Origin: Aeropyrum pernix K1
Lineage (GTDB): Archaea > Thermoproteota > Thermoprotei_A > Sulfolobales > Acidilobaceae
DNA length: 32,000 bases
Assembly: GCF_000011125.1 (NCBI RefSeq)
Contig: NC_000854.2
Span: 960,001 to 992,000 of the forward strand
Direction of reading: 5' to 3'
Part shown: positions 950-32,000 of the stretch, piece by piece
Numbering within the stretch: position 1 is the first letter of the stretch
Layout: every line of letters begins with the position of its first letter
Position numbers and translations under genes: made by a program
Notes under the pieces: model-generated
Told to the model about the DNA's origin: nothing
Seen by the model: the letters and a program-made list of their open reading frames with translations, nothing else
Database searches by the model: none

Positions 950-1114
950 ACGCGGTCACCCAAGGGTCTATAGTATGCTCTACACGGTATTTAGGCGGCC
1001 ACTGTAGGGTAGGGTTTCCTCAGTCTAGACCGAGTGGGAGGTATACCTGATATAACACCCTATCCACTCACATACTCTCTGGGGGGTGTAATCCCGTTGT
1101 CCAGCGTTCTGGAG

Positions 1115-2074: not shown

Positions 2075-2078
2075 GGGG

Positions 2079-3518
2079 TTGCCGATAGTAGCCCGCTCGA
2101 GCCGCGTCCCCTGGGTTATTAAATACAGGCCCAAGCGCGTCGAAGATGTCGTTAACCAGGACCAGGCCAAGAAGATTCTAGTACCCTGGTTCAAGGCATG
2201 GCTAGAGGGCAGGAAGCCGGATAAAAGGGCGGCCCTCCTCTACGGCCCGCCAGGCGTTGGTAAGACGAGCCTCGTGGAGGCTATAGCGAGCGAGTTCAAC
2301 CTGGAGATGATAGAGCTAAACGCCAGCGACTACAGAAGGAGGAGCGATATAGAGCGTATAGTCGGGGCCGCGTCCCGGAAGAGGAGCATGTTCAAGAGGG
2401 GCGTGGTAATACTGCTCGACGAGGTTGACGGGATAAACCCGAGAGAGGACGCGGGCGGTATAGAGGCTCTCCTCTCCGTCATAAAGACCACCGAGAACCC
2501 TATAGTCATGACCGCCAACGATCCGTGGAAAGACTTCCTCAGACCCCTCAGGGAAGTCAGCCTAATGGTGGAGTTTAGGCCTCTAACCCTGACCCACATA
2601 GTCGCGGTGCTCCAGAGGATCTGTGAGGCTGAGAGGATAGAGTGCGAGAGAGAGGCCCTACGCTACATCGCTGAGAGGAGTGAGGGCGACCTCAGGTCCG
2701 CGATAAACGACCTACAGGCAGTGGCCGAGGGCTATGGCAGAGTCACTCTAACCCTGGCCCGTGAGATAGTGAGGGGTAGGGAGAAGAGCATAGACATCTG
2801 GAGGACGCTGAACCAGGTGTTCTACAAGCCGAGGCAGGCGTGGATGGCGAGGAAGGCGGTTAGCCAGAGTGAGAAAGACTATGAGGAGCTGATAGCATGG
2901 ATAAACGACAACATACCCAGGAAGTACGGGGAGCCCTCTGACCTGTTCAGAGCCTTCGACGCCCTGGCGAGGGCGACAGTCTTCCTGGGCAGAGCCAAGT
3001 TCGGGGGCAACTGGGAGCTGCTTTCGTATGTTTTCGACCTGATGGGCCCTGGGGTCGCCTACGCTAGGATGGAGGGGGAGGTCCTCAAGACTAGGTACTC
3101 CTACCCGGAGAAGATCAGGATGATGGCTCAGCTAAGGGGGGTTAGGGAGACTAGGGAGAAGCTGGCCGAGGTCCTGGCTAAAAGACTCCTTATGAGCAGG
3201 AGAGCTGTTAAAACAGAGGTGCTACCCATACTCCACTACATCTTCCGGAGCTCCAGAGACCCTACTAAGCCTGCCATGATAGCCCTTGAGTACGGGCTAA
3301 CGGAGAAGATGGTCGAGCTTCTGGCGGGCCAGCGTAAAAGCGAGATTCTAAAGGCAATGGCCACCGTAAAGAAGGCGAGGCTAGGCGAGAAGCCCCTAGA
3401 ACCCCAGGAAGCGAAAGCCAGGAGGAGAGGGGAGAAGGCTAGTAGAGATGAGGGTAGGAAGGCGGGGAAAAGGGAGAGAAAGGGCGTAGGCCTGGACTTC
3501 TTCCTAGGTGAGCAATAA
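2079..3518 (+). CDS. rfcL: replication factor C large subunit
   Basis: TTG start 4 nt after the rfcS stop (operon). VIKYRPKRVEDVVNQ, Walker A GPPGVGKTS, Walker B ILLDEVDG. Lys/Arg/Glu-rich tail ending in a PIP-box-like GLDFFLGEQ. Confidence 0.9.
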   Translation: MPIVARSSRVPWVIKYRPKRVEDVVNQDQAKKILVPWFKAWLEGRKPDKRAALLYGPPGVGKTSLVEAIASEFNLEMIELNASDYRRRSDIERIVGAASRKRSMFKRGVVILLDEVDGINPREDAGGIEALLSVIKTTENPIVMTANDPWKDFLRPLREVSLMVEFRPLTLTHIVAVLQRICEAERIECEREALRYIAERSEGDLRSAINDLQAVAEGYGRVTLTLAREIVRGREKSIDIWRTLNQVFYKPRQAWMARKAVSQSEKDYEELIAWINDNIPRKYGEPSDLFRAFDALARATVFLGRAKFGGNWELLSYVFDLMGPGVAYARMEGEVLKTRYSYPEKIRMMAQLRGVRETREKLAEVLAKRLLMSRRAVKTEVLPILHYIFRSSRDPTKPAMIALEYGLTEKMVELLAGQRKSEILKAMATVKKARLGEKPLEPQEAKARRRGEKASRDEGRKAGKRERKGVGLDFFLGEQ

Positions 3519-3668
3519 CGGCTAGGCTGCAATGCTGAAAAGGCTTCGGAGAATCAATTGAGAACTGGGCCAGCCCTCCTCCCCGCCCCGCCGACGGAGG
3601 GCGGTTGCCCGCGTCGATGAGGTGGGGAGCGCACGGGGCTGGCCATAGCTAGGTGACCCCGGGGCTTC

Positions 3669-3989
3669 CTACCCTCTCCTCCGGGTCTCCCTCCTCAGCT
3701 TCAGAAGGAGGTTCGTCGGCACCTCCACGTAAACTTCGCCCCGATCCTCGACTATACGTATCCCAAGCTTGGTCAGCCGCCTGGACTGTGTTGGACGGGA
3801 TAGTTCGGCCAATAGGTCTTCAACCATGTAATCGGTGGGCTCCTCCCTCTTCGCCCTGATAAGGCTTGATAGGTGTATCTTGAAGCGTTCCTGTCCTGAA
3901 GCCTCTAGTATGTCGACCACTCCCCCCCTTAGCCTTGCGAATCCCTTTAGCAGCCTGAGCAGGGTCTCGAGGGGGTCCTCCCTAGTCAT
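3669..3989 (-). CDS. hypothetical protein (106 aa)
   Basis: ORF whose ATG overlaps the stop of the upstream CDP-alcohol phosphatidyltransferase gene by 4 nt (ATGA coupling). Charged, basic C-terminal tail. No family recognised. Confidence 0.55.
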   Translation of the reverse strand: MTREDPLETLLRLLKGFARLRGGVVDILEASGQERFKIHLSSLIRAKREEPTDYMVEDLLAELSRPTQSRRLTKLGIRIVEDRGEVYVEVPTNLLLKLRRETRRRG

Positions 3990-4570
3990 CTTCTCAGCTC
4001 ACCCGCTATGTAGACCATCCTCTGGATGACCGTTATCCACACTAGCACGGCAGCCGCTGAGGCGAGAGCCAGGGCCGTCTGGAGGTTGTATATGGATATG
4101 GCAAGTATAGCTAGTATGGCGATGGATCTCTCACCCCTCTCCATGAGACCCCTACCTCTAACCTCTAGTCCGAGGCTCTCGCCCTTAGCCCGGAGATAAG
4201 GCACTATCAGGCCCCCGGAGAGCATAGCAATGACTATGAGGGGGTGGACCCCTGCTATGTATAGGGTGGCATGGTATAGTGAGTCTGAGATCCTGTCCAG
4301 GCTGGAGTCGAGGAACGAGCCCAGCGGTGAGACTCTGCCTGTAAACCTGGCCACAGCCCCGTCTACAGCGTCCAGTAGCAGGGAGAGGGCGATAAGGAGG
4401 AGGCTGGCCACGGGGGATATGTAGAGCCACGCTGGCAGGGCGGCGGCGGCGGCGACAGGGCTCGCCAGTGTGTAGATGTTTGGGTCCGGCGAGATCCTCG
4501 ATAGGAATGAGGCTACTGTTGGGGCTATTCGAGCCTCGTAGAAGCTCCTTAGCCTGTTGAAAACGCCCAA
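3986..4570 (-). CDS. CDP-alcohol phosphatidyltransferase family membrane protein
   Basis: 194 aa, multi-TM. Exact family motif D-G-x2-A-R-x8-G-x3-D-x3-D in DAVDGAVARFTGRVSPLGSFLDSSLDRISD. Substrate (archaetidylinositol-P, DIP-P, serine and so on) cannot be told from sequence alone. Confidence 0.85.
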   Translation of the reverse strand: MGVFNRLRSFYEARIAPTVASFLSRISPDPNIYTLASPVAAAAALPAWLYISPVASLLLIALSLLLDAVDGAVARFTGRVSPLGSFLDSSLDRISDSLYHATLYIAGVHPLIVIAMLSGGLIVPYLRAKGESLGLEVRGRGLMERGERSIAILAILAISIYNLQTALALASAAAVLVWITVIQRMVYIAGELRR

Positions 4571-19948: not shown

Positions 19949-20908
19949 CTACGCCCTCTCTGGGGTGCGCCTCCTCCGGGAGCCCGAGCCGGCCTCCTGG
20001 AGGATGTATGCGAGCGCTGCTATAACCTCTTCTATGAGCACCGTACCCTTGTACCTCCCATCCCTGTCAACCACTATCGCAGCCTCAGACTCGTACGTGA
20101 GCATCTTCTCCAGCATGTCGTCAACCCCCTCATCCTCCCCCACAACTGGCGCTTCCATATAGGCCAGCGTGTGGGCGGGGGTGGTTGAGAGGTCTACGCC
20201 CTCCTCTATAGCCTCCTCGAGCGAGTCTGGCGTTATAACACCTATGGGCCTCCCATCACCGTCTACCACGGGGACGACTGGTGCTCCCTTCTCCATGAGC
20301 TTCAACACACTCTCGGCCGGTGTGTCGTGCCTCACCGGCTTTATACCGCCGTCTGCAAGCTGCCCCGCGGTTATAGGGGGTTCGACGCCCTTCTCCCTCA
20401 ATATTGCCAGAAGCGCCTCGGCGTCCACAATCTCCCTCGGCGGCCTGTGGAGGAGCTGGCTCGAGTATATGGAGGTGTTGCCCGAGACTTCCCTAGCGAC
20501 TATCGATGCCAGGAGGCTCGGGGGGATTAGGAGGTAGTTGTTGCCCATCTCCGCCACCATGATACTCGTGGCTAGGGGGACTTTGGCTGCGGCTGCGAAG
20601 AAGGCTGACATGCCCAGGTAGGCGTAGGCCGCCGCGGGGAGGGGGGCCTGGGCCACCTCCTGTATCAGGGCGTAGAACGAAAGGCCTAGGAGTGCCCCCC
20701 CAAGGAGCCCCGGCGCGAAGACCCCGCCGCTCCCGCCGGAGCCTATGGAGAGGCTTGTCGCCGCTATCTTGAGGAGGCCGGCCGTAGCCAGGACTGTAAA
20801 CGCCCACAGGCCAGCCTCGCCAACGGGGATCCAGGAGACGGGTTCTCCCGATAGCACGGCGGCCAGCACGCCCCTGCCGCTTCCCGCGACGAACGGCGCA
20901 GCGTACAC
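19949..20908 (-). CDS. ClC chloride channel, C-terminal fragment (GxFxP motif plus two CBS domains)
   Basis: GSGGSGGVFAPGLLGGA (ClC GxFxP motif), further TM helices, then a CBS pair (ITAGQLADGGIKPVRHDTPAESVLKLM... / VVGEDEGVDDMLEKML...IVVDRDGRYKGTV). This is the continuation of ORF 20764..21840 in another frame. Confidence 0.8.
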   Translation of the reverse strand: MYAAPFVAGSGRGVLAAVLSGEPVSWIPVGEAGLWAFTVLATAGLLKIAATSLSIGSGGSGGVFAPGLLGGALLGLSFYALIQEVAQAPLPAAAYAYLGMSAFFAAAAKVPLATSIMVAEMGNNYLLIPPSLLASIVAREVSGNTSIYSSQLLHRPPREIVDAEALLAILREKGVEPPITAGQLADGGIKPVRHDTPAESVLKLMEKGAPVVPVVDGDGRPIGVITPDSLEEAIEEGVDLSTTPAHTLAYMEAPVVGEDEGVDDMLEKMLTYESEAAIVVDRDGRYKGTVLIEEVIAALAYILQEAGSGSRRRRTPERA

Positions 20909-21840
20909 CAGGAGGGAGAGGCCAGCCGCCCCAGCACCGGCCTTAGGGTACGCGGCAGGCCCAGGGACTCCAGCCTTCTAAAGCCTCTCTCCGACTCTCT
21001 GAAAATTCTCGCGTAGAGGTAGCCGAAGGGCGCGAGGAAGGCGCCGAGGAGTATGTAGCTTGCTATGGACTGGGGGCTGTAGAAGTCTGAGCCGTCGACG
21101 ACGAGCCTCGGCAGGGGCGGCTCGTAGCCCGCCACCGTGGCTAGGGTGTAGGCTGTTATGGAGGATACGAAGGCGGGGACGAGGGCCTGCACCTCCAGGT
21201 CCCTCTTGTAGAGGACCTCGGCGGCGAAGAAGGCGCTGCCGAGGGGTGAGTGGAATAGGGCTGAGAGGGCCCCCGACATGCCCGCGACCAGGGCTACCCT
21301 CCTGTCCTCTATCCTAAGCCTGAGAAGCCTAGCGATGGTGGAGCCTATCGAGGCGCCTATCTGGACGCTGGGCCCTTCTACACCGCCGCTCCCGCCCGTG
21401 CCCACGAGTATGGAGGAGGCGACAGCCTTGACAACCCCCGTCCTGAAAGGTATCTGGGCAGCCCTCCTGTGGAAAGCCTTCACAGCAGCATCCGTACCGT
21501 GGCCCTCAGCCTCCGGCGAGAACCTGTAGACTATCAGGGAGCTCACCAGCGCACCCCCGACTATCGCCAGGGGTGCGAGGAGGCCAGCCCCTCCTGCTCT
21601 AGACAGGACTAGGCCCAAGTCGCCTCCGGAAGCCTGGCCCGCCAGGAGGTAAGCCGTAAGCCCTGCCACCACGCCCAGTAGCCAGTAGAACGCCAGGGCC
21701 GCCGCCGCAGACGCCACTCCTATGGCGACGCCGAGCACGATCCACTTCTCCGCATACGCGGCCCTAGCCAAGAGGTGGGATAAACTGTAGCTGAGCCAGC
21801 CTGCAGCACGCCTGACCCCCTGCAACGATCCTCCACTCAT
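20764..21840 (-). CDS. ClC chloride channel, N-terminal fragment (reading frame lost near 20930)
   Basis: TM-rich. GTGGSGGVEGPSVQIGASIGS (ClC GSGIPE-type motif) and GMSGALSALFHSPLGSAFFAAEVL. The last ~55 codons (RLASPSWCTLRRSSREAAG...) look out of frame. Confidence 0.8.
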   Translation of the reverse strand: MSGGSLQGVRRAAGWLSYSLSHLLARAAYAEKWIVLGVAIGVASAAAALAFYWLLGVVAGLTAYLLAGQASGGDLGLVLSRAGGAGLLAPLAIVGGALVSSLIVYRFSPEAEGHGTDAAVKAFHRRAAQIPFRTGVVKAVASSILVGTGGSGGVEGPSVQIGASIGSTIARLLRLRIEDRRVALVAGMSGALSALFHSPLGSAFFAAEVLYKRDLEVQALVPAFVSSITAYTLATVAGYEPPLPRLVVDGSDFYSPQSIASYILLGAFLAPFGYLYARIFRESERGFRRLESLGLPRTLRPVLGRLASPSWCTLRRSSREAAGACWPPCYRENPSPGSPLARLACGRLQSWLRPASSR

Positions 21841-22114
21841 TACGCCCCAACACCCTCCCGGGATCCCCTGGCCCCCTGGTCATCGTCCATTACACATGTT
21901 GGTTACGAATCCACGACTATAATAGAACACCGGAAAACCGTCGAGAGGGAGGGAGGCGGTAGGAGGTCTACAGGGCTGGCGGCTACGAGGGTTTAGGGTG
22001 TGAAGCCGCGCAGAACCCGAGCCTTCCCGGAGAGGCTGCACCCCGGCTCCCCACACCCGCCCATGTAACGCTATATCTATCCTGGACCGCTCTTGAGGTT
22101 GTGGAGAATCTGTT

Positions 22115-23074
22115 TTGGCACGTGGTGGTCTCGCGTTGAAGGACAGGTTTAAAGCCGCGGTTCTCTACGGCTGGAGGGAGCCGTTCAGGCTCGAGGAGTA
22201 CGAGGTGGAGCCCCCTGAAGGCTGGGTCCCTGTCGAGGTTAGGAGTGTTGGCATGTGCGGCAGGGATCTCGTTGTCTGGAAGGGAGGGTTCCCCAACCTT
22301 AAGCCCCCGCTGGTGCTGGGCCACGAGGTCTTCGGCCTCCACGATGGGAGGCCGGTCTCGGTCTATCCCGCCATAGCCGTCCCGGGGTGCCCGGACTGCC
22401 CTCCCTCGATACTGGGGGAGAACCTACCGGGGGGGTACGCCGAGAGGGTCTACGTGCCCCGGGAGAACCTCATACCCCTCCCCGACACGGATTTCAACAA
22501 GTACGCCGCCGCGACGTGCGGCGTGGCTACAATGATGCACGCTGCCAGCGTCGCCAGCGTGAGGCCAGGGGAGAGGGTGCTTGTGACCGGGGCCTCCGGG
22601 GGTGTAGCGCTCCACGGGATACAGTACCTCCAGCTCCTTGGGGCTGAGGTTGTGGCCTACACTAGGAGTAGGGAGAAGGCCAGGGTGCTCGAGGAGGAGC
22701 TTGGCGTCGAGGCTGTGACAAGCCTAGACTTCTACAGGGAGCGGGGCAGGGTTGATGTGGTCATGGAGACGGTGGGGGCGCCCACGATAAACGAGAGCAT
22801 GAGAGCCCTCCGCCCACGCGGCCGCCTAGTCCTAATAGGCAACATAACCGGGGAGCCAGTAACAATAAAGCGTCCAGCACTGCTCGTCATGAGAGAGATA
22901 ACAATATCAGGCACAGCAGCATTCACACGCAAAGAATGGGAGGCAGCCATAAAAACAATAGCCAAGGGAGGAGTCAAACCCTTCTACAAAGCATACAGAC
23001 TAGACCAGATAAACAACGCCCTAAAAGAAGCACTACAAGGCGCCAGAATCGGAAGAATAGTAATAAACCCCTAG
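22115..23074 (+). CDS. zinc-type alcohol dehydrogenase / MDR superfamily oxidoreductase
   Basis: 319 aa, TTG start. GMCGRD and GHEVFG zinc-site motifs, Rossmann VLVTGASGGVALHGIQ, typical C-terminus GRIVINP. Codon usage switches abruptly at about 22827 (see findings). Confidence 0.9.
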   Translation: MARGGLALKDRFKAAVLYGWREPFRLEEYEVEPPEGWVPVEVRSVGMCGRDLVVWKGGFPNLKPPLVLGHEVFGLHDGRPVSVYPAIAVPGCPDCPPSILGENLPGGYAERVYVPRENLIPLPDTDFNKYAAATCGVATMMHAASVASVRPGERVLVTGASGGVALHGIQYLQLLGAEVVAYTRSREKARVLEEELGVEAVTSLDFYRERGRVDVVMETVGAPTINESMRALRPRGRLVLIGNITGEPVTIKRPALLVMREITISGTAAFTRKEWEAAIKTIAKGGVKPFYKAYRLDQINNALKEALQGARIGRIVINP

Positions 23075-23180
23075 AAACCGGAAAGCCGAAACCACACAAC
23101 CAAACGCAAAACCAACAATCAACGCAGAAAGAAAAAGCCAAGCCAGACCAACCCGATTCACAGCCCACACAACACAGTAA
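23075..23180 (+). repeat. A/C-only low-complexity tract
   Basis: By hand count, only 4 T and 14 G in 106 nt (aaaccggaaagccgaaaccacacaaccaaacgcaaaaccaacaatcaacgcagaaag...), directly after the ADH stop. It continues the A/C skew of the ADH 3' end. Confidence 0.7.
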
Positions 23181-23830
23181 CATATAGCAGAGGAATTCTC
23201 GGTATTGCTTGTTTTCTTCTTAACAACAATTTAACAACAATATTGAAGTAATGCTCTTCAGCAGAAAGAAGCTTAATCATGTTTTCGGTAAAGATATGCA
23301 ATAAACATATACAAGCGCTCGCATATGCAATCACACCTTAAGTTAAGTTACTTTACAACAGATGTAATGGCACTGCATGCCTGAATCTTAAGAACTTCCA
23401 AAGATTGGCGTATAGCTAGGATTCTCAACTACTAACTAAATTTTTCATCTATTGTTTGCACGTAAAGGAATGCGATAGGTGCAAGTGTACTCTGACAGAA
23501 TGTTCCATTAACATTACCTTAGTAATCATAGACATTTATGATTAAGAGCATATATCGGCTATGTACTCTTTGTGGAGCCTCTCCTAATTGTTAAAAATTA
23601 AAAAGTAGCAAAGTAGAGTGAGATACAAAGTGCTTAAAGGGAGAGGGCCCGTGAAACCATAAGCTGATTTGCAAGTCGGCTTCTGTTCCCATCAGCAGAC
23701 CCCAATGCTTCACAGCAACTGTTAAATTATGCCTTGTAGATTAAGTCTAGCAGTTATAACATCTATTTTGAGTTGAAGCTGGATCGAGAAAATTTAAATA
23801 CTGTATAATAAATATATGTTAATGGTATCG

Positions 23831-23840
23831 ATTAATATAT
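23831..23840 (+). promoter_or_regulatory. TATA-like box plus SD-like GGTGA upstream of the island nuclease gene
   Basis: attaatatat lies ~30 nt upstream of the ATG at 23868. GGTGA at 23857..23861 lies 6 nt before the ATG. Confidence 0.35.
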
Positions 23841-23867
23841 GAAACTTTTTGAGTTGGGTGAATTCAA

Positions 23868-24707
23868 ATGAAATCCGAAATCGATAAGGATTTATGTATT
23901 TTAAATATCATATCAACAATACACAAAATAAAAAATAATATAAACAAATTCTATAATAAATTATCGCGCAATGAAGCATTGACAAGATATGTACTAATTG
24001 ATCCCTTCCTTCGAAGCATAGGCTGGGACCTGGGAAACCCCAAAGAAGTCATTCCAGAGTTTAGTACTGAGGTAGGTGTTCCAGACTATGCCCTTTTACA
24101 AGATGATAAATTATTCATGTTTATTGAGGCTAAAGCTCTTGGTAAAATAAAGGATGTTGATCAGGTTAAAGTCGTATCATATGCAGTCACAAAAGGTGTT
24201 CAATATCTTACGATAACTGATGGAGACTCATGGATAGTATATGACTTGTACCGTGAAGGAAATATTGAACAGAAACAAATATTAACGTGGAGTATGTCCA
24301 GCGACGATGCTGTTACTATAGCTATTAAGGCATTATTCATAGCTAACCTAAAACCCCCCATTCTATCTCTCTACAGAAGAGAAAGACAGCTTTCGGAGCT
24401 AGTCACTAAATCTACTGTAATTAAACTTGAACATGATAAAAATGTTCTAAGGAAAAAGTTTAAGGGGCCTATTACGTCAAAAACTGCTAGAGATATCATA
24501 TTAACGATATTGAAATCCGAAAAGAGACCTTTAAGCGTCAAAGAAATATTCGAACGCGCCCAAATAATGTTCGAGCCTACTGAAGAGGATAAGAAAGTCC
24601 TCTCTAATGGAGAAGTGAGATGGCAAAATAGAATAAGATGGGAACTTTCAAAGCTGGCTAAGGAAGGGCTAATAAAAAGAGTAAAAGAAGGCGTTTACAA
24701 GGCTTAA
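23868..24707 (+). CDS. HsdR-N-type PD-(D/E)xK nuclease fused to a C-terminal Mrr_N-like winged-helix domain
   Basis: 279 aa, AT-rich codons. NEALTRYVLIDPFLRSIGWD (HsdR_N signature helix), PD73 ... E87-A-K89, TITDGDSWIVYD. The C-terminal SVKEIFERAQ...SNGEVRWQNRIRWELSKLAKEGLIKRVKEGVYKA matches the Mrr N-terminal wHTH pattern. Confidence 0.85.
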   Translation: MKSEIDKDLCILNIISTIHKIKNNINKFYNKLSRNEALTRYVLIDPFLRSIGWDLGNPKEVIPEFSTEVGVPDYALLQDDKLFMFIEAKALGKIKDVDQVKVVSYAVTKGVQYLTITDGDSWIVYDLYREGNIEQKQILTWSMSSDDAVTIAIKALFIANLKPPILSLYRRERQLSELVTKSTVIKLEHDKNVLRKKFKGPITSKTARDIILTILKSEKRPLSVKEIFERAQIMFEPTEEDKKVLSNGEVRWQNRIRWELSKLAKEGLIKRVKEGVYKA

Positions 24708-24943
24708 TGCTAATACTTAAATGGATTATCAAATCTAATCTAATTTAAATTATTTAGTTAAATGAGCGATAAAACTAAACCTAAACATGGAGACGTTAAA
24801 ATGGGTTTGATACAATTATCCGAGGAGAATCATATTTAGTCAACTGAGATGCTAAACCCTCAACACTGTTAATTAGTGTATTTTTGATGCGGAGAGTCAG
24901 TGAGTGTGTTAGGTGGAAACTGTTATTTAATCTCCATGTAACG

Positions 24944-24955
24944 TATTATATATTA
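24944..24955 (+). promoter_or_regulatory. TATA-like box upstream of the putative antitoxin ORF
   Basis: tattatatatta lies 19-30 nt upstream of the GTG at 24974. GGTGG at 24962..24966 could be an SD. Confidence 0.35.
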
Positions 24956-24973
24956 GCAGACGGTGGTTTGATA

Positions 24974-25168
24974 GTGTCTTCGAAAAAGTCTAAGGTTAAG
25001 GTTGAAGTTGAGGTTGAAGTTCCCGAAGGCGATGATGAAGGCGTTTACAGGGAGGAATTTCGGAGAGAGCTAGCTAAGAGGATATTAAACGTAATGCTTG
25101 ACAAGGACGTGGAGCCAGCTAAGCGGGCTGTTGCCAAGACTTTGCGCGAGAAGGGCGGGGAGGGATAG
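24974..25168 (+). CDS. putative antitoxin partner of RelE (family not recognised)
   Basis: ORF open from 24884, but the first 30 codons look non-coding, so the GTG at 24974 is preferred (64 aa). It lies directly upstream (46 nt) and co-oriented with the RelE-like toxin. KVKVEVEVEV repeat, then an acidic/helical part (EEFRRELAKRILNVMLDK). Confidence 0.5.
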   Translation: MSSKKSKVKVEVEVEVPEGDDEGVYREEFRRELAKRILNVMLDKDVEPAKRAVAKTLREKGGEG

Positions 25169-25214
25169 CCCCGGCTACTAGCTGTATGCAATTACTTTCT
25201 GGTGTTAGGAAAGA

Positions 25215-25499
25215 TTGACAGAGGTCTATATAGAGAGTTCTGCAAAACGTGATTTAAAGAGGCTGCCAAAGCATATTGTCCAGTGGGTGTTAAACACTGT
25301 TGAGGAACTCGAGGAGAACCCGTTTATCGGCGAGAGGCTACATCTTCCAGCAAGCCTACATGGCTTGTACTGCTTTAAGCTAAGGCGAGGAGACTACCGG
25401 CTAGTCTACTGCTACGTTCCAAATCGAGACACAGTATATATCATCGCCGTTGGACACCGAGGCGAGATATACGAGAAGTTTCGAAGACGAATAAAATAA
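25215..25499 (+). CDS. relE: type II toxin, RelE/ParE (RelE/StbE) family mRNA interferase
   Basis: 94 aa, TTG start. Family pattern YIESSAKRDLKRLPKHIVQWVLNTVEELEENPFIGERL...LRRGDYRLVYCYVPNRDTVYIIAVGHRGEIY. Confidence 0.9.
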   Translation: MTEVYIESSAKRDLKRLPKHIVQWVLNTVEELEENPFIGERLHLPASLHGLYCFKLRRGDYRLVYCYVPNRDTVYIIAVGHRGEIYEKFRRRIK

Positions 25500-25686
25500 C
25501 GCACTGAATCCAATTATAAACATTAGTGATAAGTGATAATTTTAAATTTAAATTCTGCAGGATAGAACTCCGGGAGGTTGGTTATTATAGAGGCCTATCT
25601 GTGCAAGAGCTGTTCTTTCTGTGCTTCATATTCTTTTTCGGGTATAGAGTGCCAAAGAATCAAGCAGATATAGTTGAGGCAAACGC

Positions 25687-25929
25687 CTAATGCCCTAGGA
25701 GCCTCCAGAGGGTTACCCTGCTTACCCCCGCAAGTTCTACTACTTGTTTTCTACCGTGCTTTTCTACTACTCGTCTGAGGATACGGTATCGGGCGTCCTC
25801 TCTAAGCCTTGCCGGGTCAACAGCCTCCCACCACTCCCGCCTATCAGGCATGACTACCACTCCTGATGTTTCACCATGCATCATGAAACTGAAACATTCG
25901 GGGTTATATATTTCTAACCATCGCTTCAC
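25687..25929 (-). CDS. small HTH-containing ORF, possibly a truncated remnant (integrase or regulator N-terminus?)
   Basis: 80 aa from a GTG only 20 nt downstream of the tRNA-Gly 3' end on the same strand. It ends just after a helix-turn-helix (VVELAGVSRVTLWRLLGH*). Intermediate GC. Confidence 0.45.
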   Translation of the reverse strand: MKRWLEIYNPECFSFMMHGETSGVVVMPDRREWWEAVDPARLREDARYRILRRVVEKHGRKQVVELAGVSRVTLWRLLGH

Positions 25930-25948
25930 GATGATGAAGAGGTGTTTG

Positions 25949-26027
25949 TGGTGCGGCCGCCGGGATTTGAACCCGGGACCACCGGCTTGGGAGGCCGGCG
26001 TCCTAGTCCAGGCTAGACGACGGCCGC
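25949..26027 (-). tRNA. tRNA-Gly (anticodon CCC), CCA encoded, no intron
   Basis: Hand-folded cloverleaf on the minus strand: acceptor GCGGCCG/CGGCCGC, D-arm GTCT-AGCCTGGACTA-GGAC, anticodon arm CCGGC-CTCCCAA-GCCGG, variable TGGTC, T-arm CCGGG-TTCAAAT-CCCGG, discriminator A, CCA. Confidence 0.95.
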
Positions 26028-26157
26028 GCCATACTATTTTCTAGTCTATCCTGGGGGGCTTAAAGGTTAGCGCTGTTACCTGTGGGTGAGTGTTATATCC
26101 TCCCGTTAACCATGTATCTCCATCTGGCCCGCGACTCCCCCGGGTGGGGGGTGTTGG

Positions 26158-27150
26158 GTGAGCGGGCCTGGGACGTATTCACCGCCTTCTTCCCGGTTAC
26201 AATATCTGGGGTGCTGTGCTGGGGTGGCTGGTGCTAGGCTTGTTCCGGGGCCTCTTGGGGGGAGGTTTCCCTTTAGCAACTGTGTGTTGGTTGAGGATGC
26301 GGGGTTCAAGGTTCTCGTGGATACGGGGTGTGAGCCCTGGGAGCGTGGGCTGGTGGATGTTGATGTAGTGGTGTTCACTCACTTCCACCCAGACCATATC
26401 AGGGGGTTCCATAGGCTGCGGGCTGGCCGGGTGGCTGCCCCGGAGGGTGAGGAGCCCTATGCTGGGAGGCTTGAGAGGCTTGCCCTCAGGTTTGCCGGCG
26501 AGAGGTGGAGGGAGTGGATCAGCATGGCTAGGCTGGTTATGGATCTGGAAGGCGTGCCGGAGCCGGGGGAGTATTTCAGGCCTGGGGAGGACCTCTGCTT
26601 CCGGGGGGTCTGCATTAAGACCTACCCCGCTAGGGGGCACCTCCAGACCCACACCCTGCTCGAGCTGCCCGGGGGGCTTGTCCACCTTGTGGATATCGAT
26701 TTGACAGGGTTCGGCCCATGGTACGGCAACCCTGAGGCGAGCCCCGAGCTCTTCCTACTCGACATTGAGGCTGCCGCGGAGATGGAGGCCAGGGGGTATC
26801 TTTCAGCCCACAAGGACAGGGTCTACTCTAGGGGTGAGGGTGTGGAGGCTCTCGCCAGGTTTGCGGGGAGGCTGGTGGAGCAGGCTGAGGGTGTGTATAA
26901 GGCCTTGGAGGCCGCTGGGAGGCCCCTCTGGCCCTGGGAGCTCACCGGGAGGGGTATAATATACAGGAGGTATCTGGAGGGTATGGAGGCCATTATGAGC
27001 TACTTCGAGGGCGTGATGATAGAGAAGCTCCTCGGCCTCCTAGGCCTATGGGGCTGCACCCGGAAGACCCCCGGGGGGTATGTTGCCAGGGACTGCCACC
27101 TCGGGGTTATCAAGGATAGGATAACGAGGAACATACTATCCCTAGCCTAA
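26158..27150 (+). CDS. metallo-beta-lactamase fold hydrolase
   Basis: HxHxDH motif in VVFTHFHPDHIRG, preceded by NCVLVEDAGFKVLVDTG. The true start is probably the in-frame GTG at 26224 ((M)AGARLVPGP...), because the first 22 codons look non-coding. Confidence 0.85.
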   Translation: MSGPGTYSPPSSRLQYLGCCAGVAGARLVPGPLGGRFPFSNCVLVEDAGFKVLVDTGCEPWERGLVDVDVVVFTHFHPDHIRGFHRLRAGRVAAPEGEEPYAGRLERLALRFAGERWREWISMARLVMDLEGVPEPGEYFRPGEDLCFRGVCIKTYPARGHLQTHTLLELPGGLVHLVDIDLTGFGPWYGNPEASPELFLLDIEAAAEMEARGYLSAHKDRVYSRGEGVEALARFAGRLVEQAEGVYKALEAAGRPLWPWELTGRGIIYRRYLEGMEAIMSYFEGVMIEKLLGLLGLWGCTRKTPGGYVARDCHLGVIKDRITRNILSLA

Positions 27151-27215
27151 CCACCGCTAGTCTGACCCGGAGGGTTACCCCGGGGATAGTAGGTTGAGGG
27201 CCCGCTAGGGAGGGG

Positions 27216-27221
27216 TTATAT
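27216..27221 (+). promoter_or_regulatory. TATA-like box upstream of the CDGSH mini-gene
   Basis: ttatat within ggggttatatgtttt lies ~38 nt upstream of the GTG at 27259. Confidence 0.3.
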
Positions 27222-27258
27222 GTTTTGAGGTCTAACTCGCTGTTGTGGTGCGCAGGCT

Positions 27259-27438
27259 GTGGCTAGGGTAAGGATAGTGGCCAAGAAGAACGGGCCCTAC
27301 CTACTCGAGGTAGACGGGAAGGTCCAGACGGCCCTGTGCCGCTGCGGCCACTCCAACAACAAGCCCTACTGCGACGGAACCCACGCTAGAGTGGGGTTCC
27401 AGGCTGATGAGAAGGTGGCCTTCGAGGCAGAGTTCTAA
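27259..27438 (+). CDS. CDGSH-type iron-sulfur domain protein (59 aa)
   Basis: Not in the supplied ORF track (GTG start, <60 aa). My translation is (M)ARVRIVAKKNGPYLLEVDGKVQTALCRCGHSNNKPYCDGTHARVGFQADEKVAFEAEF*. It contains the CDGSH signature C-x-C-x2-S-x3-P-x-C-D-G-T-H. Confidence 0.8.
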   Translation: MARVRIVAKKNGPYLLEVDGKVQTALCRCGHSNNKPYCDGTHARVGFQADEKVAFEAEF

Positions 27439-27491
27439 AACCGCGCCTGGGAGAAGTAGCGTCCCCGCGAAACTCTAAGGCTACCTCCTTT

Positions 27492-27953
27492 TTGTCTTTC
27501 CGTGTAGACTTCGATTCTGGGGGTTGTTTGGCGAGGGTGAGGTATGAGAGGGCCCCGGACGTGTGCCGGGCCGCTGAGGTCCTCGTAGACGCTCTCGGAC
27601 TAGACTATATCGACGTCTCCAGGGTGTACTGCGTGAGGAGCTGGGGGAGTAGGGGGAGGGCTTATGCGAGGATCTACGGGACGCCGGGGGCTTGGGCTGC
27701 GGCCCTCGGCTATAACCCCGGCTACGTTATAGAGGTTGTCTCGGAGAAGTTCGACCCTCTGCCACTGGAGGAGAAGGTTAAGGTCGTCATACATGAGCTG
27801 CTCCACATACCCCGCACCTTCAGCGGCGGCCTCAGGGCCCATGGCCCCCTGGTTAACGGGAGGAGGGTTGCAGCGCTGTACAGGAGGGTCAGGGGTGATG
27901 CCAGGGTTATGGGCATCCTCCGCGAAGCCTTGGATGGAGGCCCTCAAGAATAG
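27492..27953 (+). CDS. predicted zinc metallopeptidase (HExxH), COG4900-like
   Basis: 153 aa, TTG start. VKVVIHELLHIPRTFSGGLRAHG contains HELLH plus a downstream His. Family assignment is from memory only. Confidence 0.65.
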   Translation: MSFRVDFDSGGCLARVRYERAPDVCRAAEVLVDALGLDYIDVSRVYCVRSWGSRGRAYARIYGTPGAWAAALGYNPGYVIEVVSEKFDPLPLEEKVKVVIHELLHIPRTFSGGLRAHGPLVNGRRVAALYRRVRGDARVMGILREALDGGPQE

Positions 27954-28626
27954 CTCCCAGCAGGGCCGCGGCCCCGGCCATGGCGAGAATGGCCAGCTTC
28001 CCAAGCCCCCAGCGTAGCCCGGCCTCGCGGCCCTCCCTGGCCACGACACCCGGCTCCCCTGCATCCCCTTTAGCGGTGCTGGCGGCTGTGGCCCCGTCCT
28101 GCCGCTCCTGGAGGGTTATGAGGAGGATGGCGTTGCCTGGGCTTAGCGTTACCGTGGCGGCCATTATCTCCCCTGGCTCCGGCTGGGCGAGTGTTAGCAT
28201 GCCTTCGAGGTCTAGGAGGACCTCAGCCGCTCCATCCCTGCAGTAGACTCTGGTGTAGCCGAGGGCTATCTCCCTCACCCCAAGGCTGCCAAGGTAGGCG
28301 TGTACATCGGGGGTGAGGTCCTCGCAGCCCTTGGGAGGGGTTGTGCGTAGCCTGAGCACGCCGTCCTCCTTCTCCACGTCTACCTCGAGGCCGTTGCTAG
28401 CTAGTATGATGGCGGTGAGCCCTCCAGGCAACGGCGTCCTGTAGCTCTCGCGGTAGACTAGGTCCTGGGGGGAGTATACGAGGCCCCGGCCTCCCGGGAG
28501 CTCTAGGGTGGTGACCCCGCCGGGGAGGTTTAGGGTTAGCCCTTCCCCAGCCGCCGAATGATGAGCTGGCCCTGTCGCCAGAAGCAGGATTGCCAGGAGC
28601 AGGGGGAGAGCGGGCCTATTCTTCAA
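27907..28626 (-). CDS. secreted / C-terminally membrane-anchored hypothetical protein
   Basis: 239 aa. N-terminal signal-like MKNRPALPLLLAILLLATGPAHHSAAG, C-terminal TM LGKLAILAMAGAAALLGAILEGL. 47-nt convergent overlap with the HExxH gene. Confidence 0.6.
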   Translation of the reverse strand: MKNRPALPLLLAILLLATGPAHHSAAGEGLTLNLPGGVTTLELPGGRGLVYSPQDLVYRESYRTPLPGGLTAIILASNGLEVDVEKEDGVLRLRTTPPKGCEDLTPDVHAYLGSLGVREIALGYTRVYCRDGAAEVLLDLEGMLTLAQPEPGEIMAATVTLSPGNAILLITLQERQDGATAASTAKGDAGEPGVVAREGREAGLRWGLGKLAILAMAGAAALLGAILEGLHPRLRGGCP

Positions 28627-29278
28627 CAGACTTTACCTCCTCCTCCAACGCCAGGATGTACTCGAGGAGCTCGACGGGGGTTAGGACGGTGAGCCCCAGG
28701 TCCTCCGCGGCCCTCCTAAGCCCCTCATCGCTCGTGACAATAGCGGCCCCCAGCTCGAGGGCGAGGAGGAGGGTGTCAACATCCTCGACACTGTCTAGCA
28801 TCCCCTTCCTAGTGTACTCCCTGTATTTCTCCCTGAGCGACCTGACTATATCACCCTCCTCGTCCCGGCTCCTAAGCGCCCTCCTCACGTGATCCTCAGC
28901 CACCCTAAGCCCCTTGTCGAGCCTGGCCCTAACGGTCTCCACATACCTTCTGAACATGGCTGCTGGGAGGCGCAGCTCATGCGTGGTGGGCGGCTTAACC
29001 CTCACCCACGCCATAAGCCTGGCAATGGTTGTAGGGTGCACGCCGTTCCCCAGCATGAACCTCTCTATCTCAGCCCTGACGCTAGGAGTTATGTACACCG
29101 TCAGCCCCATCCTGGAAGCCCGGGCCAGTATCCTAGCCATTATCCTGGCAGCCTCCTCCAGGCTCCTGGCCCCGAGGACCTCGCGCAGCTTGGCGTCGGT
29201 AAACATGGTCGTGTCTGCCACCACAACGCTGCCCACGCTCGGCGGAGGCCTCCCGCCCACGCCAGCCACCCCCTCCAA
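28616..29278 (-). CDS. RNA ligase partner protein (PIN-like domain, MJ_0950 family)
   Basis: 220 aa, immediately downstream of the RNA ligase gene on the same strand. PIN-like acidic residues (VVVADTTMF ... DSVEDVDTLLLALELGAAIVTSDEGL). Confidence 0.8.
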   Translation of the reverse strand: MEGVAGVGGRPPPSVGSVVVADTTMFTDAKLREVLGARSLEEAARIMARILARASRMGLTVYITPSVRAEIERFMLGNGVHPTTIARLMAWVRVKPPTTHELRLPAAMFRRYVETVRARLDKGLRVAEDHVRRALRSRDEEGDIVRSLREKYREYTRKGMLDSVEDVDTLLLALELGAAIVTSDEGLRRAAEDLGLTVLTPVELLEYILALEEEVKSVEE

Positions 29279-29296
29279 CCCCCATGTCCCTCACTT

Positions 29297-30496
29297 CTAG
29301 TCTAGAGGGCTGATTCCCGTCTCCAGTATCCTGGCTATCTCGCCCTCACTCTTCCTAGGCTTCCTGAAAGCCACCCTAACACCATCTACACCCCTAGCAA
29401 CACCAGCTATCTCCAGGTGCACACCCAGGCTTGCGAAGTAGGCTATAACCTCTTCCGCCTCAACCTCGTTAGCGAACACCAGCTCGAACTCCTCCACAAG
29501 CCGCCCACCCCTGCTGACCGCCTCCACAGCCTCTATGGCAGGCGCCAGTATAGCCTCGCCCAGCTCCCCGTACCTCCTGCGGCCCGTCTCCCACTCCCTG
29601 AATATCTCCCTGAGGATTCGGGGGAATAGGAAGGACCTACCCTCCTCGAACGGGTACCTCATGCCCAGCCTGATGTCACCTATGTTGGTCCTGCTGGTGG
29701 TGTATTTCAGTGGCTCTACCCTGCCCTCCGGGTCCTTCACTATAACGCCCTCCCTACCCCTCTTCTCGAGGTCCTCAACAATCGTGTAGAGCCTTTCCAC
29801 GCCCGAAGCGGTAGCAGGGATCTCGGCGAGTAGGTTGACCGTCTTGAGCCCGTACTCGGGGGCGAGGCTAAACTTCACCCGGGGCGGGAGCTGGCGGCCT
29901 CCCTTGAATATGTCGAAGATGAAGTAGCCGAAGCCCGGGGCCTCCTCGTAGTAGTATCTAGTGTAGGGGTTCTCGAGGCCTACAACCTCTCCCGCAATGA
30001 AGGAGCCCTCGGCCCCCAGGTCCTCTAGGATCTTCTGGAGAGCCCCCCCGTAGAGCCTCCTCAGCCTCCTCGTAGTGTAGGGGCATATTAAGCCGCCCCG
30101 TGTAGCCGCGTAGACCATGCCGCCGAGCGTGAAGACCCTCACGTTGTAGCCGTTCATCTTCTCCTCAACAAGCACAGTCGGCCCAGGGAACCATCTCGGC
30201 ACGGCCACCCTCGGCAGCAGCATCCTCTTTATCGACGGGTAGCCCCAGACCACAATCTGCTCCCCCCGCCTGAAGGCCACGAGGGTCCCCTCAGGCACGC
30301 CGCGGAACTGCCTCCTGAACCCTACGTAGACTACGTCCTCGAACCTCGAGACCCTAACGCTCCTCCTCGTGGAGAGGGCTTCAAGATCGACGCTACCCGG
30401 ATCCACACCAACGGCCCTCAGGGCACTGGCGAGGACCTCAGCCGCGCTGGCCAAAGCAGGAGCACCCGGTGATAAGTCTTGTAGTAGGCCGGGCAA
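29297..30496 (-). CDS. ATP-dependent RNA ligase, Rnl3 / Pab1020 family
   Basis: 399 aa, TTG start. Nucleotidyltransferase motif I VEEKMNGYNVRVF (lysine adenylylation site). The N-terminal and C-terminal dimerisation-domain layout resembles the Pyrococcus Pab1020 enzyme. Confidence 0.9.
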   Translation of the reverse strand: MPGLLQDLSPGAPALASAAEVLASALRAVGVDPGSVDLEALSTRRSVRVSRFEDVVYVGFRRQFRGVPEGTLVAFRRGEQIVVWGYPSIKRMLLPRVAVPRWFPGPTVLVEEKMNGYNVRVFTLGGMVYAATRGGLICPYTTRRLRRLYGGALQKILEDLGAEGSFIAGEVVGLENPYTRYYYEEAPGFGYFIFDIFKGGRQLPPRVKFSLAPEYGLKTVNLLAEIPATASGVERLYTIVEDLEKRGREGVIVKDPEGRVEPLKYTTSRTNIGDIRLGMRYPFEEGRSFLFPRILREIFREWETGRRRYGELGEAILAPAIEAVEAVSRGGRLVEEFELVFANEVEAEEVIAYFASLGVHLEIAGVARGVDGVRVAFRKPRKSEGEIARILETGISPLD

Positions 30497-30525
30497 AACT
30501 GTGTATCCAAGACTGGGGGTATGAG

Positions 30526-30858
30526 CTAGAATACCAGGGGGGTGTACCCTTTGCCTAGGAGCTCCGCTATCTTAGCCCCCACGTACTCGACCCTCACCTT
30601 ATCCTTCAGCGCCTCCTCGAAGCCACCCTGCTCGGCGACCCTCTTGCACGCCAGGGGGGTTCCCTTGACCTGGGAGTAGGCCGCTATAGCCTCCAGGAGC
30701 CTCTGGTTGCCCCTAGCTATCTCAGCCTCGATAGGCCCGAAGAATATTAGCTCCACATCCTCGGCCCAGCCCCTCTTCAAAGCGTTGGTAGCCCAGAGCA
30801 TGCCCGTCAAAGCCTTGTCAACATCGCTGCTCGATATGATAACCAGGGCTTTCACCAA
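30526..30858 (-). CDS. DsrE/DsrF-like family protein
   Basis: 110 aa. MVKALVIISSSDVDKALTGMLWATNALKRGWAEDVELIFFGPIE fits the small DsrE-like Rossmann-type fold pattern. Not verified. Confidence 0.6.
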   Translation of the reverse strand: MVKALVIISSSDVDKALTGMLWATNALKRGWAEDVELIFFGPIEAEIARGNQRLLEAIAAYSQVKGTPLACKRVAEQGGFEEALKDKVRVEYVGAKIAELLGKGYTPLVF

Positions 30859-30886
30859 AGCCTGCCACCATTAGAATATACTGTCT

Positions 30887-30903
30887 GCATAAATTATTTA
30901 TGC
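30887..30903. promoter_or_regulatory. perfect 8+1+8 AT-rich palindrome in the promoter region of the DsrE-like gene
   Basis: gcataaat-t-atttatgc lies 29-45 nt upstream of the start at 30858, next to a second TATA-like ttagaatata (30871..30880). Candidate operator overlapping the TATA box. Confidence 0.4.
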
Positions 30904-30987
30904 CGATATGGCGAGCGGGCTAGAGTCCCCTCAGGCCTTGCTTAACAAGCCTCCCCGGCCCCTGCTCCGGCCTAATGACCAGGCAGG

Positions 30988-31461
30988 CTAGCCTCCAACC
31001 CTGAAGCCAGCTTCGACCAGTATTCGCTCCCCACTATAGACGTCTTCAAGAATTTTCACGATCTTATACTCCCCGGGATAGAAGTCAAAAGATTCTGGTT
31101 TAAAAACTGCTACAACCTTAGTCTCCCCATGCTTTATAACGTCATTAGCGACGGGGAAAACAGGGTTAAACTCGGGATCCGCCACCCATGCCCCGCCGTC
31201 CCACGTGTACAAGGTCCACCCGAAGCGGTACTCCAGCGTTCGACCGCTGTTATTCACAAGTTTGACTGTTACAGTGTCGCCTTCACCATAAACTTTCTTA
31301 TCCGGCTCCAGAAAAACAGACTCACCCCCCATATCCTCCGACGGGAGATTCATGCTTGTTAATGCGAGGTAGGTCGAGGGCACCGCTACAAGAATACCCA
31401 GGAGAAAACCGGCCAGAACAAATTTAAACATAACACCTGCACAACCGGGAACTGTACCCAC
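30988..31461 (-). CDS. N-terminally membrane-anchored protein with a beta-sandwich (Ig-like/BsuPI-like) ectodomain
   Basis: 157 aa from GTG 31461 (alternative ATG at 31431). TM FKFVLAGFLLGILVAVPSTYLAL, then an all-beta-looking domain (KKVYGEGDTVTVKLVNNSGRTLEYRFGWTLYTWDGGAWV). GC lower than its neighbours. Confidence 0.6.
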   Translation of the reverse strand: MGTVPGCAGVMFKFVLAGFLLGILVAVPSTYLALTSMNLPSEDMGGESVFLEPDKKVYGEGDTVTVKLVNNSGRTLEYRFGWTLYTWDGGAWVADPEFNPVFPVANDVIKHGETKVVAVFKPESFDFYPGEYKIVKILEDVYSGERILVEAGFRVGG

Positions 31462-31484
31462 TAGACCAGTGGGAGACCGTACAG

Positions 31485-31495
31485 TTAAATATAAG
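31485..31495 (-). promoter_or_regulatory. TATA-like box for gene 30988..31461
   Basis: The plus strand reads ttaaatataag (minus strand cttatatttaa), 24-34 nt upstream of the GTG at 31461. Confidence 0.35.
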
Positions 31496-31690
31496 TATGT
31501 ACCCCAGCTGTTTATCCCGAATTTACAGGCAAGCCATCGACCATACAGGCCCTCCGCCGGGAGACCCCTCCGGGCCCTGGCAGGCTTATCCTGTTTCAGT
31601 AATGTATTCTGGCGTTTCGGGAGAAAGCGATGTGATTCCCAGGAGGTTTCTGAAGGCTGGTGGCTGGGTAGGCCGGTTTCGCTGTTCGGG

Positions 31691-32000
31691 TTAAAGCAAC
31701 CGTATCATATGGTGAAGCATATCCACTATAATGCCGGCACCTATGATTATAGGCACGGCTAGGTTCAGGTTGAAGCTCTCCTTAACCCTTCCAAGCCAAG
31801 CCATAGCCTGCACAAGTATTATCACTAAGGCTGTTAGGGCTGTAGAGACCGTGGCTATAGCTCCGAGGCCGTAGGCTTCTACTCCTGCTATGAATAGGGC
31901 GACGGCTGCAGCGTGCATGGCCAGTGAAGCCGCTAGAGCCCCCTTTGGCCCCAGCAGGGCTGGTATACTTCCTAAGCCATGACTCCTGTCGAAGTCTATA
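31691..32000 (-). CDS. integral membrane protein, 3' part (gene continues beyond the window edge)
   Basis: The track shows 75 aa from the ATG at 31918. My translation shows the same frame stays open to position 32000 (...IDFDRSHGLGSIPALLGPKGALAASLAMHAAAVALF...). Hydrophobic throughout. Confidence 0.5.
   Translation of the reverse strand, partial: IDFDRSHGLGSIPALLGPKGALAASLAMHAAAVALFIAGVEAYGLGAIATVSTALTALVIILVQAMAWLGRVKESFNLNLAVPIIIGAGIIVDMLHHMIRLL

Follow-up and report, generated by a model that had tools for sequence, protein, structure and literature searches.

Classical type II integrative elements of the pNOB8 kind occupy the 3'-end of a transfer RNA (tRNA) gene and leave, beside the reconstituted tRNA gene, an integrase gene that reads inward into the element (She et al. 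2002; PMC8371274); they carry accessory and defence genes and have frequently decayed (PMC8371274). Integrases with the catalytic domain PF16795 have instead been assigned to the 'suicidal' SSV, pTN3 and pT26-2 families, whose own gene is split on integration (PMC8371274). Here we describe a locus of Aeropyrum pernix K1 that shares features with both groups. It extends over loci APE_1557 to APE_1558b and lies in a stretch of 32,000 nucleotides (nt) of contig NC_000854.2 (positions 960,001 to 992,000) that is referred to below as the window; K1 coordinates are counted from its first letter and features are collected in Table 1. Between a gene for a zinc-type alcohol dehydrogenase (ADH) and the gene for tRNA-Gly(CCC) the window holds a strongly AT-rich segment which, over positions 23220-25948, is probably what is left of an integrative element that reached the K1 lineage when a tyrosine integrase recombined it into the 3'-end of tRNA-Gly(CCC).

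The foreign character of this DNA is apparent from its composition. The G+C content of the K1-specific DNA, delimited at 23177..25946 (2770 bp) by comparison with a second strain of the species, is 38.6% as against 60% (0.600) across the rest of the window. In 300-nt windows the mean is 0.382 (minimum 0.263) inside 23075-25650 and 0.601 (standard deviation 0.041, minimum 0.457) outside the region, and no comparable AT-rich stretch was detected between other genes of the window, where all remaining values were at least 45.7%. An AT-rich island had been proposed in a first-pass annotation of this DNA, whose local G+C counts (39/60, 10/60 and 17/60) proved exact on recount, and the scan bears the proposal out, since within the window AT-rich stretches are not common between core genes. 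The suggestion that the island is a mosaic is likewise supported by the values for its parts, which are 0.35 for the non-coding left part and for the nuclease gene APE_1558, 0.50 for the open reading frame (ORF) upstream of the toxin gene, 0.46 for the ParE-type toxin gene and 0.54 for an integrase remnant next to the tRNA gene.

The second A. pernix genome, contig BDMD01000011.1 (locus L017), is that of strain YK1-12-2013 (bioRxiv 10.1101/2021.04.21.440749), hereafter YK1. Its flanks are 94.9% identical to those of K1 on the left (window positions 21835-23176) and 93.7% identical on the right (25947-31999), and the 2735 bp that it carries between these same flanks bear no relation to the 2770 bp present in K1. 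The breakpoints fall at 23176 and 25947, the latter at most 2 nt from the CCA end of tRNA-Gly(CCC), which forms the right edge of the island, and the 3'-end of the tRNA gene faces the island, as had been claimed. In the draft genome of Aeropyrum camini (locus L022), 513 bp separate the ADH stop codon from tRNA-Gly(CCC), and this DNA is homologous to the tRNA-proximal 400 bp of the YK1 region and not to K1. Because the intergenic regions of A. camini and YK1 are homologous to one another and that of K1 is not, the K1 arrangement is the derived state and the segment is strain specific. Thus the segment is absent from both relatives, although the empty site predicted earlier, with ADH and tRNA-Gly directly adjacent, occurs in neither. 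The left edge had been placed at 23075; the YK1 breakpoint at 23177, together with an ancestral repeat at 23196-23219 that is described below, moves it about 100-145 bp further right. The island was also present in 16 Logan contigs, all of which were 100% identical to K1, and no further allele was found. Some of these contigs end within the tRNA gene, and population heterogeneity was rejected as the cause given their complete identity to K1; all but one end at 25978, which we read as an assembly break.

The DNA that the island displaced can be recognised in the relatives. The intergenic regions of A. camini and YK1 contain a 24-nt motif, CTCTTAGTCTTGCTTGTTTTCAAC, which occurs in two copies 60 nt apart in A. 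camini and in four copies in YK1, arranged as two plus two flanking a 2.2-kb insert. The same 24-mer is found in arrays of 16 and 15 identical units, with a spacing of 58-69 nt, in contigs of metagenome Ga0256831 (loci L041 and L048), which identifies it as a genuine repeat of the CRISPR type. Both Aeropyrum loci carry the at least two near-identical repeats with unique spacers of similar length that characterise an array, here with 2-4 repeats and spacers of 36-42 nt. Moreover, about 28 nt following the last repeat are conserved between the metagenome arrays and the Aeropyrum loci, and the approximately 330 nt extending to the tRNA gene are G+T-rich and resemble the leader side of locus L050. 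From the repeats and their flanks, the ancestral region between ADH and tRNA-Gly was a mini-CRISPR array with a leader-like stretch abutting the tRNA gene.

In K1 a single decayed copy of this repeat remains. It is the best match to CTCTTAGTCTTGCTTGTTTTCAAC in the window, it shares strand and place with the copies of YK1 and A. camini, and its score was attained in only 2 of 1000 block shuffles; a gapped scan of K1 gave no further decayed repeats above the shuffle level. With one copy matching at 18 of 24 positions the K1 locus falls short of a CRISPR array, whereas the A. camini and YK1 loci compare well with orphan or mini arrays in their 24-nt repeat and leader-like flank. There are no cas genes within the window, and Rfam searches of the K1, YK1 and A. 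camini loci at a permissive threshold returned the tRNA alone and no CRISPR-repeat family. The foreign DNA of K1 begins directly after this terminal repeat. Therefore, the segment does sit between ADH and the tRNA gene, as the first-pass annotation had it, but it replaced a mini-CRISPR array and its leader-like stretch and was not a simple insertion.

An indication of how the segment arrived is an 80-amino-acid (aa) ORF beside the tRNA gene (25687..25929, minus strand), which ends at a TAG stop codon at 25687-25689. Pfam yields only weak helix-turn-helix (HTH) matches for it, and it had been listed as an HTH fragment in an island thought to contain no integrase. This must be corrected, because the ORF holds residues 1-63 of an integrase of about 430 aa and of the PF16795 family, whose catalytic domain is missing. 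A phmmer search against 1.8 billion representatives produced 26 relatives of the fragment, int', the best at 2e-18. From one of these (P0084), 481 proteins were recovered at E <= 1e-5; most of them, named integrase in assemblies of Sulfolobales, Ignisphaera, Desulfurococcales and Acidilobaceae, measure 420-447 aa and carry PF16795 (Phage_integr_3). In tblastn searches residues 1-63 of the full-length integrases matched positions 25884..25696 with 57-60% identity (E 1e-18 to 1e-19), and homology to the integrase gene ends at about 25693. Nothing of the remaining gene was detected by tblastn in the K1 window or in the YK1 and A. camini loci, and a match of residues 192-222 at 25082-25174 was not significant (E 0.56-4).

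The position of int' is that of the intact genes. Each of the five intact integrase loci examined has a tRNA gene upstream of the start codon, on the same strand and at a distance of 65-87 nt, compared with 64 nt in K1. The tRNA is tRNA-Thr(TGT) in Zestosphaera (L054) and tRNA-Arg(TCG) at the other four loci, L023-L026, of which L025 and L026 are nearly identical to each other. The K1 spacer, which includes the AT-rich box AAATATATAA, can be aligned as nucleotide sequence with those that separate tRNA-Arg from the intact integrases. This alignment takes in an inverted repeat, ATGTTTCA (25866-25873) and TGAAACAT (25890-25897), that flanks the int' start codon; an inverted repeat in this position accompanies the intact genes of the family too, and in Zestosphaera it is 11 nt long and of different sequence. 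The contigs that carry the intact genes beside tRNA genes are chromosomal and reach 1.37 Mb, and downstream of the integrases lie, among others, genes for BrxL, a type I restriction system, MazE and a helicase with a PLD nuclease. The int' reading frame remains open upstream across the whole tRNA gene (25949-26040, minus strand). An SSV-type overlap with the tRNA gene was considered on this account and rejected, since the full-length relatives begin at about residue 16 of the ORF, downstream of the tRNA, and the open frame is judged coincidental.

With the classical elements the K1 locus shares the tRNA 3'-end site with a complete tRNA, accessory or defence-type cargo, decay, and the absence of the segment from the same site in relatives; of the integrase gene that reads inward from the tRNA it has a remnant, as befits a decayed and not an active element. 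It differs in that the integrase belongs to PF16795, and not to PF00589 plus SAM-like domains as in the pNOB8/XerA group, in that only codons 1-63 are left, and in the lack of attL/attR attachment (att) repeats and of a partial tRNA copy. A search for repeats, complemented by blastn-short with the tRNA and 30 nt of its downstream flank, gave no att repeat in K1, in agreement with the earlier statement that no long direct repeat of the tRNA 3' half is present.

The SSV-type integrases (SSV1, pTN3 and pT26-2) offer a second comparison, and the K1-type family departs from their published description. Full-length relatives of the K1 fragment share their catalytic family but are intact beside tRNA genes at about 430 aa; int' reads inward from the tRNA gene, no Int(C) occurs in the window, there is no att site in the ORF, and no tRNA-like sequence is present at the break in int'. 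The SSV1 integrase is about 335 aa long and its Int(N) part, at about 65 aa, is close in length to the K1 fragment. HTH-only N-terminal fragments of the K1-type family, 59-128 aa long, were also seen in other metagenomes (P0079-P0083; locus L053, 55-267), the one at L053 ending after 70 codons. Frequent truncation of these integrases is one possible reason, retention of the HTH piece as a small regulator another.

Two of the cargo genes match known protein families. APE_1558 combines nuclease and winged-helix domains, as predicted in the first-pass annotation, with Pfam matches to Mrr_N (7e-11) and HSDR_N (6e-7) each above the cut-off and a PHROG match to endonuclease (2e-13). The catalytic residues D73, E87-x-K89 and D118 are kept in 9-10 of 10 aligned homologues. 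Its AlphaFold2 model has a mean pLDDT of 79.7, and Foldseek searches with this model gave weak best matches (E >= 2e-3) to the nuclease domains of DrdV, DpnI, Hjc, BpuSI and HsdR, as well as to winged-helix domains. A TTTAAATA box precedes the gene at about 23793. No methyltransferase is present among the island ORFs, and APE_1558 is a candidate stand-alone restriction-type endonuclease. It shares with DpnI the nuclease-first domain order, the PD-(D/E)xK nuclease plus winged helix and the lack of an adjacent methyltransferase. It shares with Mrr the winged helix, but the nuclease is of HSDR_N type and not Mrr_cat, and the domain order of Mrr is reversed. APE_1558 has the catalytic residues and the winged helix of the modification-dependent class represented by DpnI and Mrr, with weak structure matches (E >= 2e-3), and may serve a defensive role, the probable target being modified or foreign DNA.

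Only 19 relatives of APE_1558 were detectable, scattered over Marsarchaeota, Sulfolobales and metagenomes. The closest (68% aa identity) lies on a contig of 36.5% G+C and is followed after 140 nt by a partial tRNA-Arg(CCG) which covers tRNA positions 22-79, lacks the 5' acceptor and D arm and looks like an att site; a second homologue has 40% G+C within a contig of 57%. Searches of known mobile elements with tblastn found only distant stand-alone HSDR_N nucleases (25-38% identity), and scans of IMG/VR with an APE_1558 alignment, and with a 330-aa protein of YK1 described below, gave nothing. A literature search found no mention of APE_1558 or of the CRISPR repeat sequence. The proposal of a low-GC donor is plausible, given the contig of the closest relative; no known virus or plasmid matched.

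The second gene encodes a toxin of the RelE/ParE family, APE_1558b, which matches Pfam ParE_toxin (PF05016; 7e-12, 46.2 bits against a cut-off of 23) and the PHROG RelE-like toxin (2.5e-13) and shows 37-42% identity to bacterial plasmid RelE/ParE toxins. The small ORF just upstream, APE_1558a, is a putative antitoxin gene by virtue of its position; a single-sequence AlphaFold2 model predicts two helices at low confidence (pLDDT 63.7). The locus resembles type II RelE/ParE toxin-antitoxin modules of mobile elements in its clear toxin domain, its small upstream ORF and its location in a mobile-element remnant. It differs from them in the upstream ORF, for which no antitoxin family gave a match and which is separated from the toxin start by 46 nt. 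Of the RelE module claimed earlier, the toxin is clear and the putative antitoxin has no family match. Such a module would aid persistence of the remnant.

These results suggest the following course of events. After the K1 lineage split from that of YK1, an element encoding a PF16795 integrase would have recombined into the 3' part of tRNA-Gly(CCC), generating a complete tRNA and, behind a spacer of about 65 nt, an integrase gene directed into the element. Deletions would later have taken away everything of the integrase gene past codon 63, the element's far end together with its att copy, and the ancestral leader-like stretch of the CRISPR array plus every repeat except the terminal one. What was left would then have been fixed in place, with the nuclease, the RelE/ParE toxin and the small upstream ORF still open; the nuclease and toxin frames also retain their family motifs. 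Both this order of events and the arrival of all the cargo with one element are inferred. The remnant itself is incapable of excision, and the earlier description of a foreign, immobile segment at a tRNA 3'-end, missing from relatives, agrees with the G+C data, the YK1 and A. camini comparisons and the truncated integrase.

Several observations weigh against this reading. G+C content varies from 0.54 in int' through 0.46-0.50 in the toxin module to 0.35 in APE_1558, so the cargo may stem from more than one event, and APE_1558a has neither a family match (Pfam and PHROG among the searches) nor a plasmid match. The island as a whole, checked as had been recommended, had no blastn match among 50,697 phage and 72,556 plasmid records. 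No att repeats were found within 10 kb of the intact loci L023-L026 and L054 and, given their absence from K1 as well, the integrase family is no more than putatively mobile; nor was it found in IMG/VR, which was scanned with one integrase and an integrase alignment. Four of the integrase loci share one tRNA, tRNA-Arg(TCG), and by their Pfam matches the genes after the L025 and L026 integrases look like a core rad50-mre11-herA-nurA operon, so some family members may be resident chromosomal genes. tRNA-Arg(TCG) and tRNA-Gly(CCC) have 24 nt of the T arm in common, through which int' might have arisen by recombination if K1 also had a resident integrase copy at tRNA-Arg(TCG).

Other origins have been weighed against the same data. 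The whole segment, already decayed, could have come in whole from a different Aeropyrum-like lineage through homologous recombination at the conserved flanks, with crossovers at the ADH tail or the terminal CRISPR repeat and at the tRNA, the integrase never having been active in the K1 lineage. Both breakpoints adjoin sequence conserved between strains, K1 has no att repeat, YK1 holds a different cassette between the same flanks, and these flanks differ by 5-6%, so that the lineages are distinct enough for allele exchange. We nevertheless regard such an import as unlikely, because the junction of tRNA, spacer and int' has the layout that an integrase makes, which would merely shift the integration to another lineage, and no donor Aeropyrum allele is known, the other copies found being all 100% identical to K1. 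Derivation from a temperate crenarchaeal virus such as APSV1 or APOV1 of the same genome is highly improbable. SSV-type integrases of viruses and plasmids have PF16795 as their catalytic domain (PMC8371274) and K1 does carry two proviruses (bioRxiv 10.1101/2021.04.21.440749), but the segment encodes no capsid or other viral hallmark gene, its PHROG matches are limited to a generic endonuclease and RelE, the phage collection and IMG/VR gave no match, and the division of the integrase into Int(N) and Int(C) that marks SSV-type proviruses is absent. An ancestral origin of the segment, with loss from both YK1 and A. camini, is scarcely credible, as is a native AT-rich intergenic region: apart from the absence of att repeats nothing speaks for it, YK1 and A. 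camini share a leader-like stretch and mini-array beside the tRNA that K1 lacks, which marks K1 as derived, the G+C content lies about 5 standard deviations below the window mean, and the detectable relatives of APE_1558 are few and taxonomically scattered. Integration at tRNA-Gly(CCC) followed by decay thus remains the preferred explanation.

Table 1. Features of the A. pernix K1 window and of the comparison loci
Feature	Sequence	Position	Strand	Evidence or remarks
Zinc-type alcohol dehydrogenase APE_1557, conserved left flank outside island	K1	22136..23074	+	Pfam ADH_N, ADH_zinc_N
A+C-rich, T-poor tract over ADH codons ~234-312 and ~100 nt downstream	K1	22820..23190	.	codon-position composition
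Decayed terminal CRISPR repeat, 18/24 matches to CTCTTAGTCTTGCTTGTTTTCAAC	K1	23196..23219	+	three-way alignment; shuffles
K1-specific AT-rich non-coding DNA	K1	23220..23867	.	G+C 0.35; no YK1 or A. camini homology
APE_1558, 279 aa, N-terminal HSDR_N-type PD-(D/E)xK nuclease and C-terminal Mrr_N winged helix	K1	23868..24707	+	Pfam, PHROG
APE_1558a, putative antitoxin, 64 aa, or 94 aa from 24884	K1	24974..25168	+	position alone
APE_1558b, RelE/ParE-family toxin, 94-aa ORF	K1	25215..25499	+	Pfam, PHROG
DNA between toxin gene and integrase break point	K1	25500..25689	.	no family or RNA match
int', first 63 codons (HTH part) of PF16795-family tyrosine integrase	K1	25690..25884	-	phmmer, tblastn
tRNA-to-integrase spacer, 64 nt, with AT-rich box	K1	25885..25948	-	nucleotide alignment
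tRNA-Gly(CCC), complete	K1	25949..26027	-	ARAGORN; Rfam 62.1 bits
MBL-fold hydrolase, conserved right flank	K1	26224..27150	+	Pfam Lactamase_B
A+C-rich tract	L017 (YK1)	960-1340		
Mini-CRISPR array	L017 (YK1)	1358-1444, 3647-4071 (with leader-like stretch)		
Cassette between repeats 2 and 3	L017 (YK1)	1445-3646		
A+C-rich tract	L022 (A. camini)	1900-2290		
Mini-CRISPR array	L022 (A. camini)	2286-2700 (with leader-like stretch)		
Partial tRNA-Arg(CCG)	L018	3562-3619		tRNA positions 22-79
Intact ~430-aa PF16795 integrase	L023	9835-11272		
Intact ~430-aa PF16795 integrase	L024	9856-11326		
Intact ~430-aa PF16795 integrase	L025	4783-6245		
Intact ~430-aa PF16795 integrase	L054	9862-11299		

The genes on either side of the island are conserved. 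The APE_1557 protein corresponds exactly to BAA80556.2 and is 97% identical to its YK1 counterpart; the ADH relatives recovered in a scan of the genome collection are all at most 68% identical, with synteny absent. The MBL-fold hydrolase is 97% identical to that of YK1 and 84% identical to that of A. camini over the aligned two-thirds. Left of ADH, the ClcA chloride-channel gene (20764-21840 and upstream, minus strand) is split into ORFs of 358 aa and 235 aa according to the Logan gene calls, and ClcA is annotated as a truncated homolog in both K1 and YK1. Within the island, the non-coding left part has no ORF with a family match and no Rfam match.

A further compositional shift begins at about 22820, within the ADH gene, and is separate from the island. 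In this A+C-rich tract the third codon positions are 50-65% A (50-58% in K1) and 0-4% T in the three Aeropyrum genomes, compared with 0-12% A earlier in the gene, and (A+C-G-T)/N reaches 0.45, the highest value in the window. The tract is common to K1, YK1 and A. camini, does not occur in the orthologues of other genera and, judged by its sequence distribution, counts as an ancestral feature of the genus and does not belong to the island. The amino acid changes within it lean in the same direction (R to K, V to I and D to N). A deamination scar was rejected, because the substitutions move towards A in general (G>A 34%, C>A 23%, T>A 21%) and do not follow the pattern of G>A plus T>C. An A+C-rich flank is lacking from other arrays built on the CRISPR repeat of the mini-array.

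The YK1 locus carries a cassette of its own. The 2.2-kb insert between repeats 2 and 3 of the mini-array has the appearance of a giant spacer and encodes three minus-strand ORFs, for an acidic protein of 330 aa, one of 83 aa and a membrane protein of 186 aa, for which Pfam, PHROG, PADLOC, the phage collection and IMG/VR all gave no match. The cassette may derive from recombination at a CRISPR repeat. The region between ADH and tRNA-Gly might even be a hot spot of cassette exchange with two routes of entry, one through a PF16795 integrase that remains unsplit at about 65 nt downstream of its target tRNA and the other through recombination at CRISPR repeats, although we consider this rather doubtful. 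If it were true, arrays could take up mobile DNA that bears a CRISPR repeat, and a CRISPR leader could be deleted when an element integrates at a tRNA.

The K1 remnant is an island of a familiar kind, a decayed tRNA-linked element with defence and addiction genes, and it leaves current ideas on genomic islands unchanged. Its recognition explains three ORFan-like genes of K1 (APE_1558, 1558a and 1558b) together with an unannotated integrase relic. Furthermore, it establishes that the tRNA-Gly(CCC) site varies between strains and provides a documented case of a mobile element displacing a small CRISPR array. More generally, it draws attention to an integrase family, widespread among the Thermoprotei, which combines an SSV-type catalytic domain with the classical unsplit layout at a tRNA gene and is often followed by defence genes.

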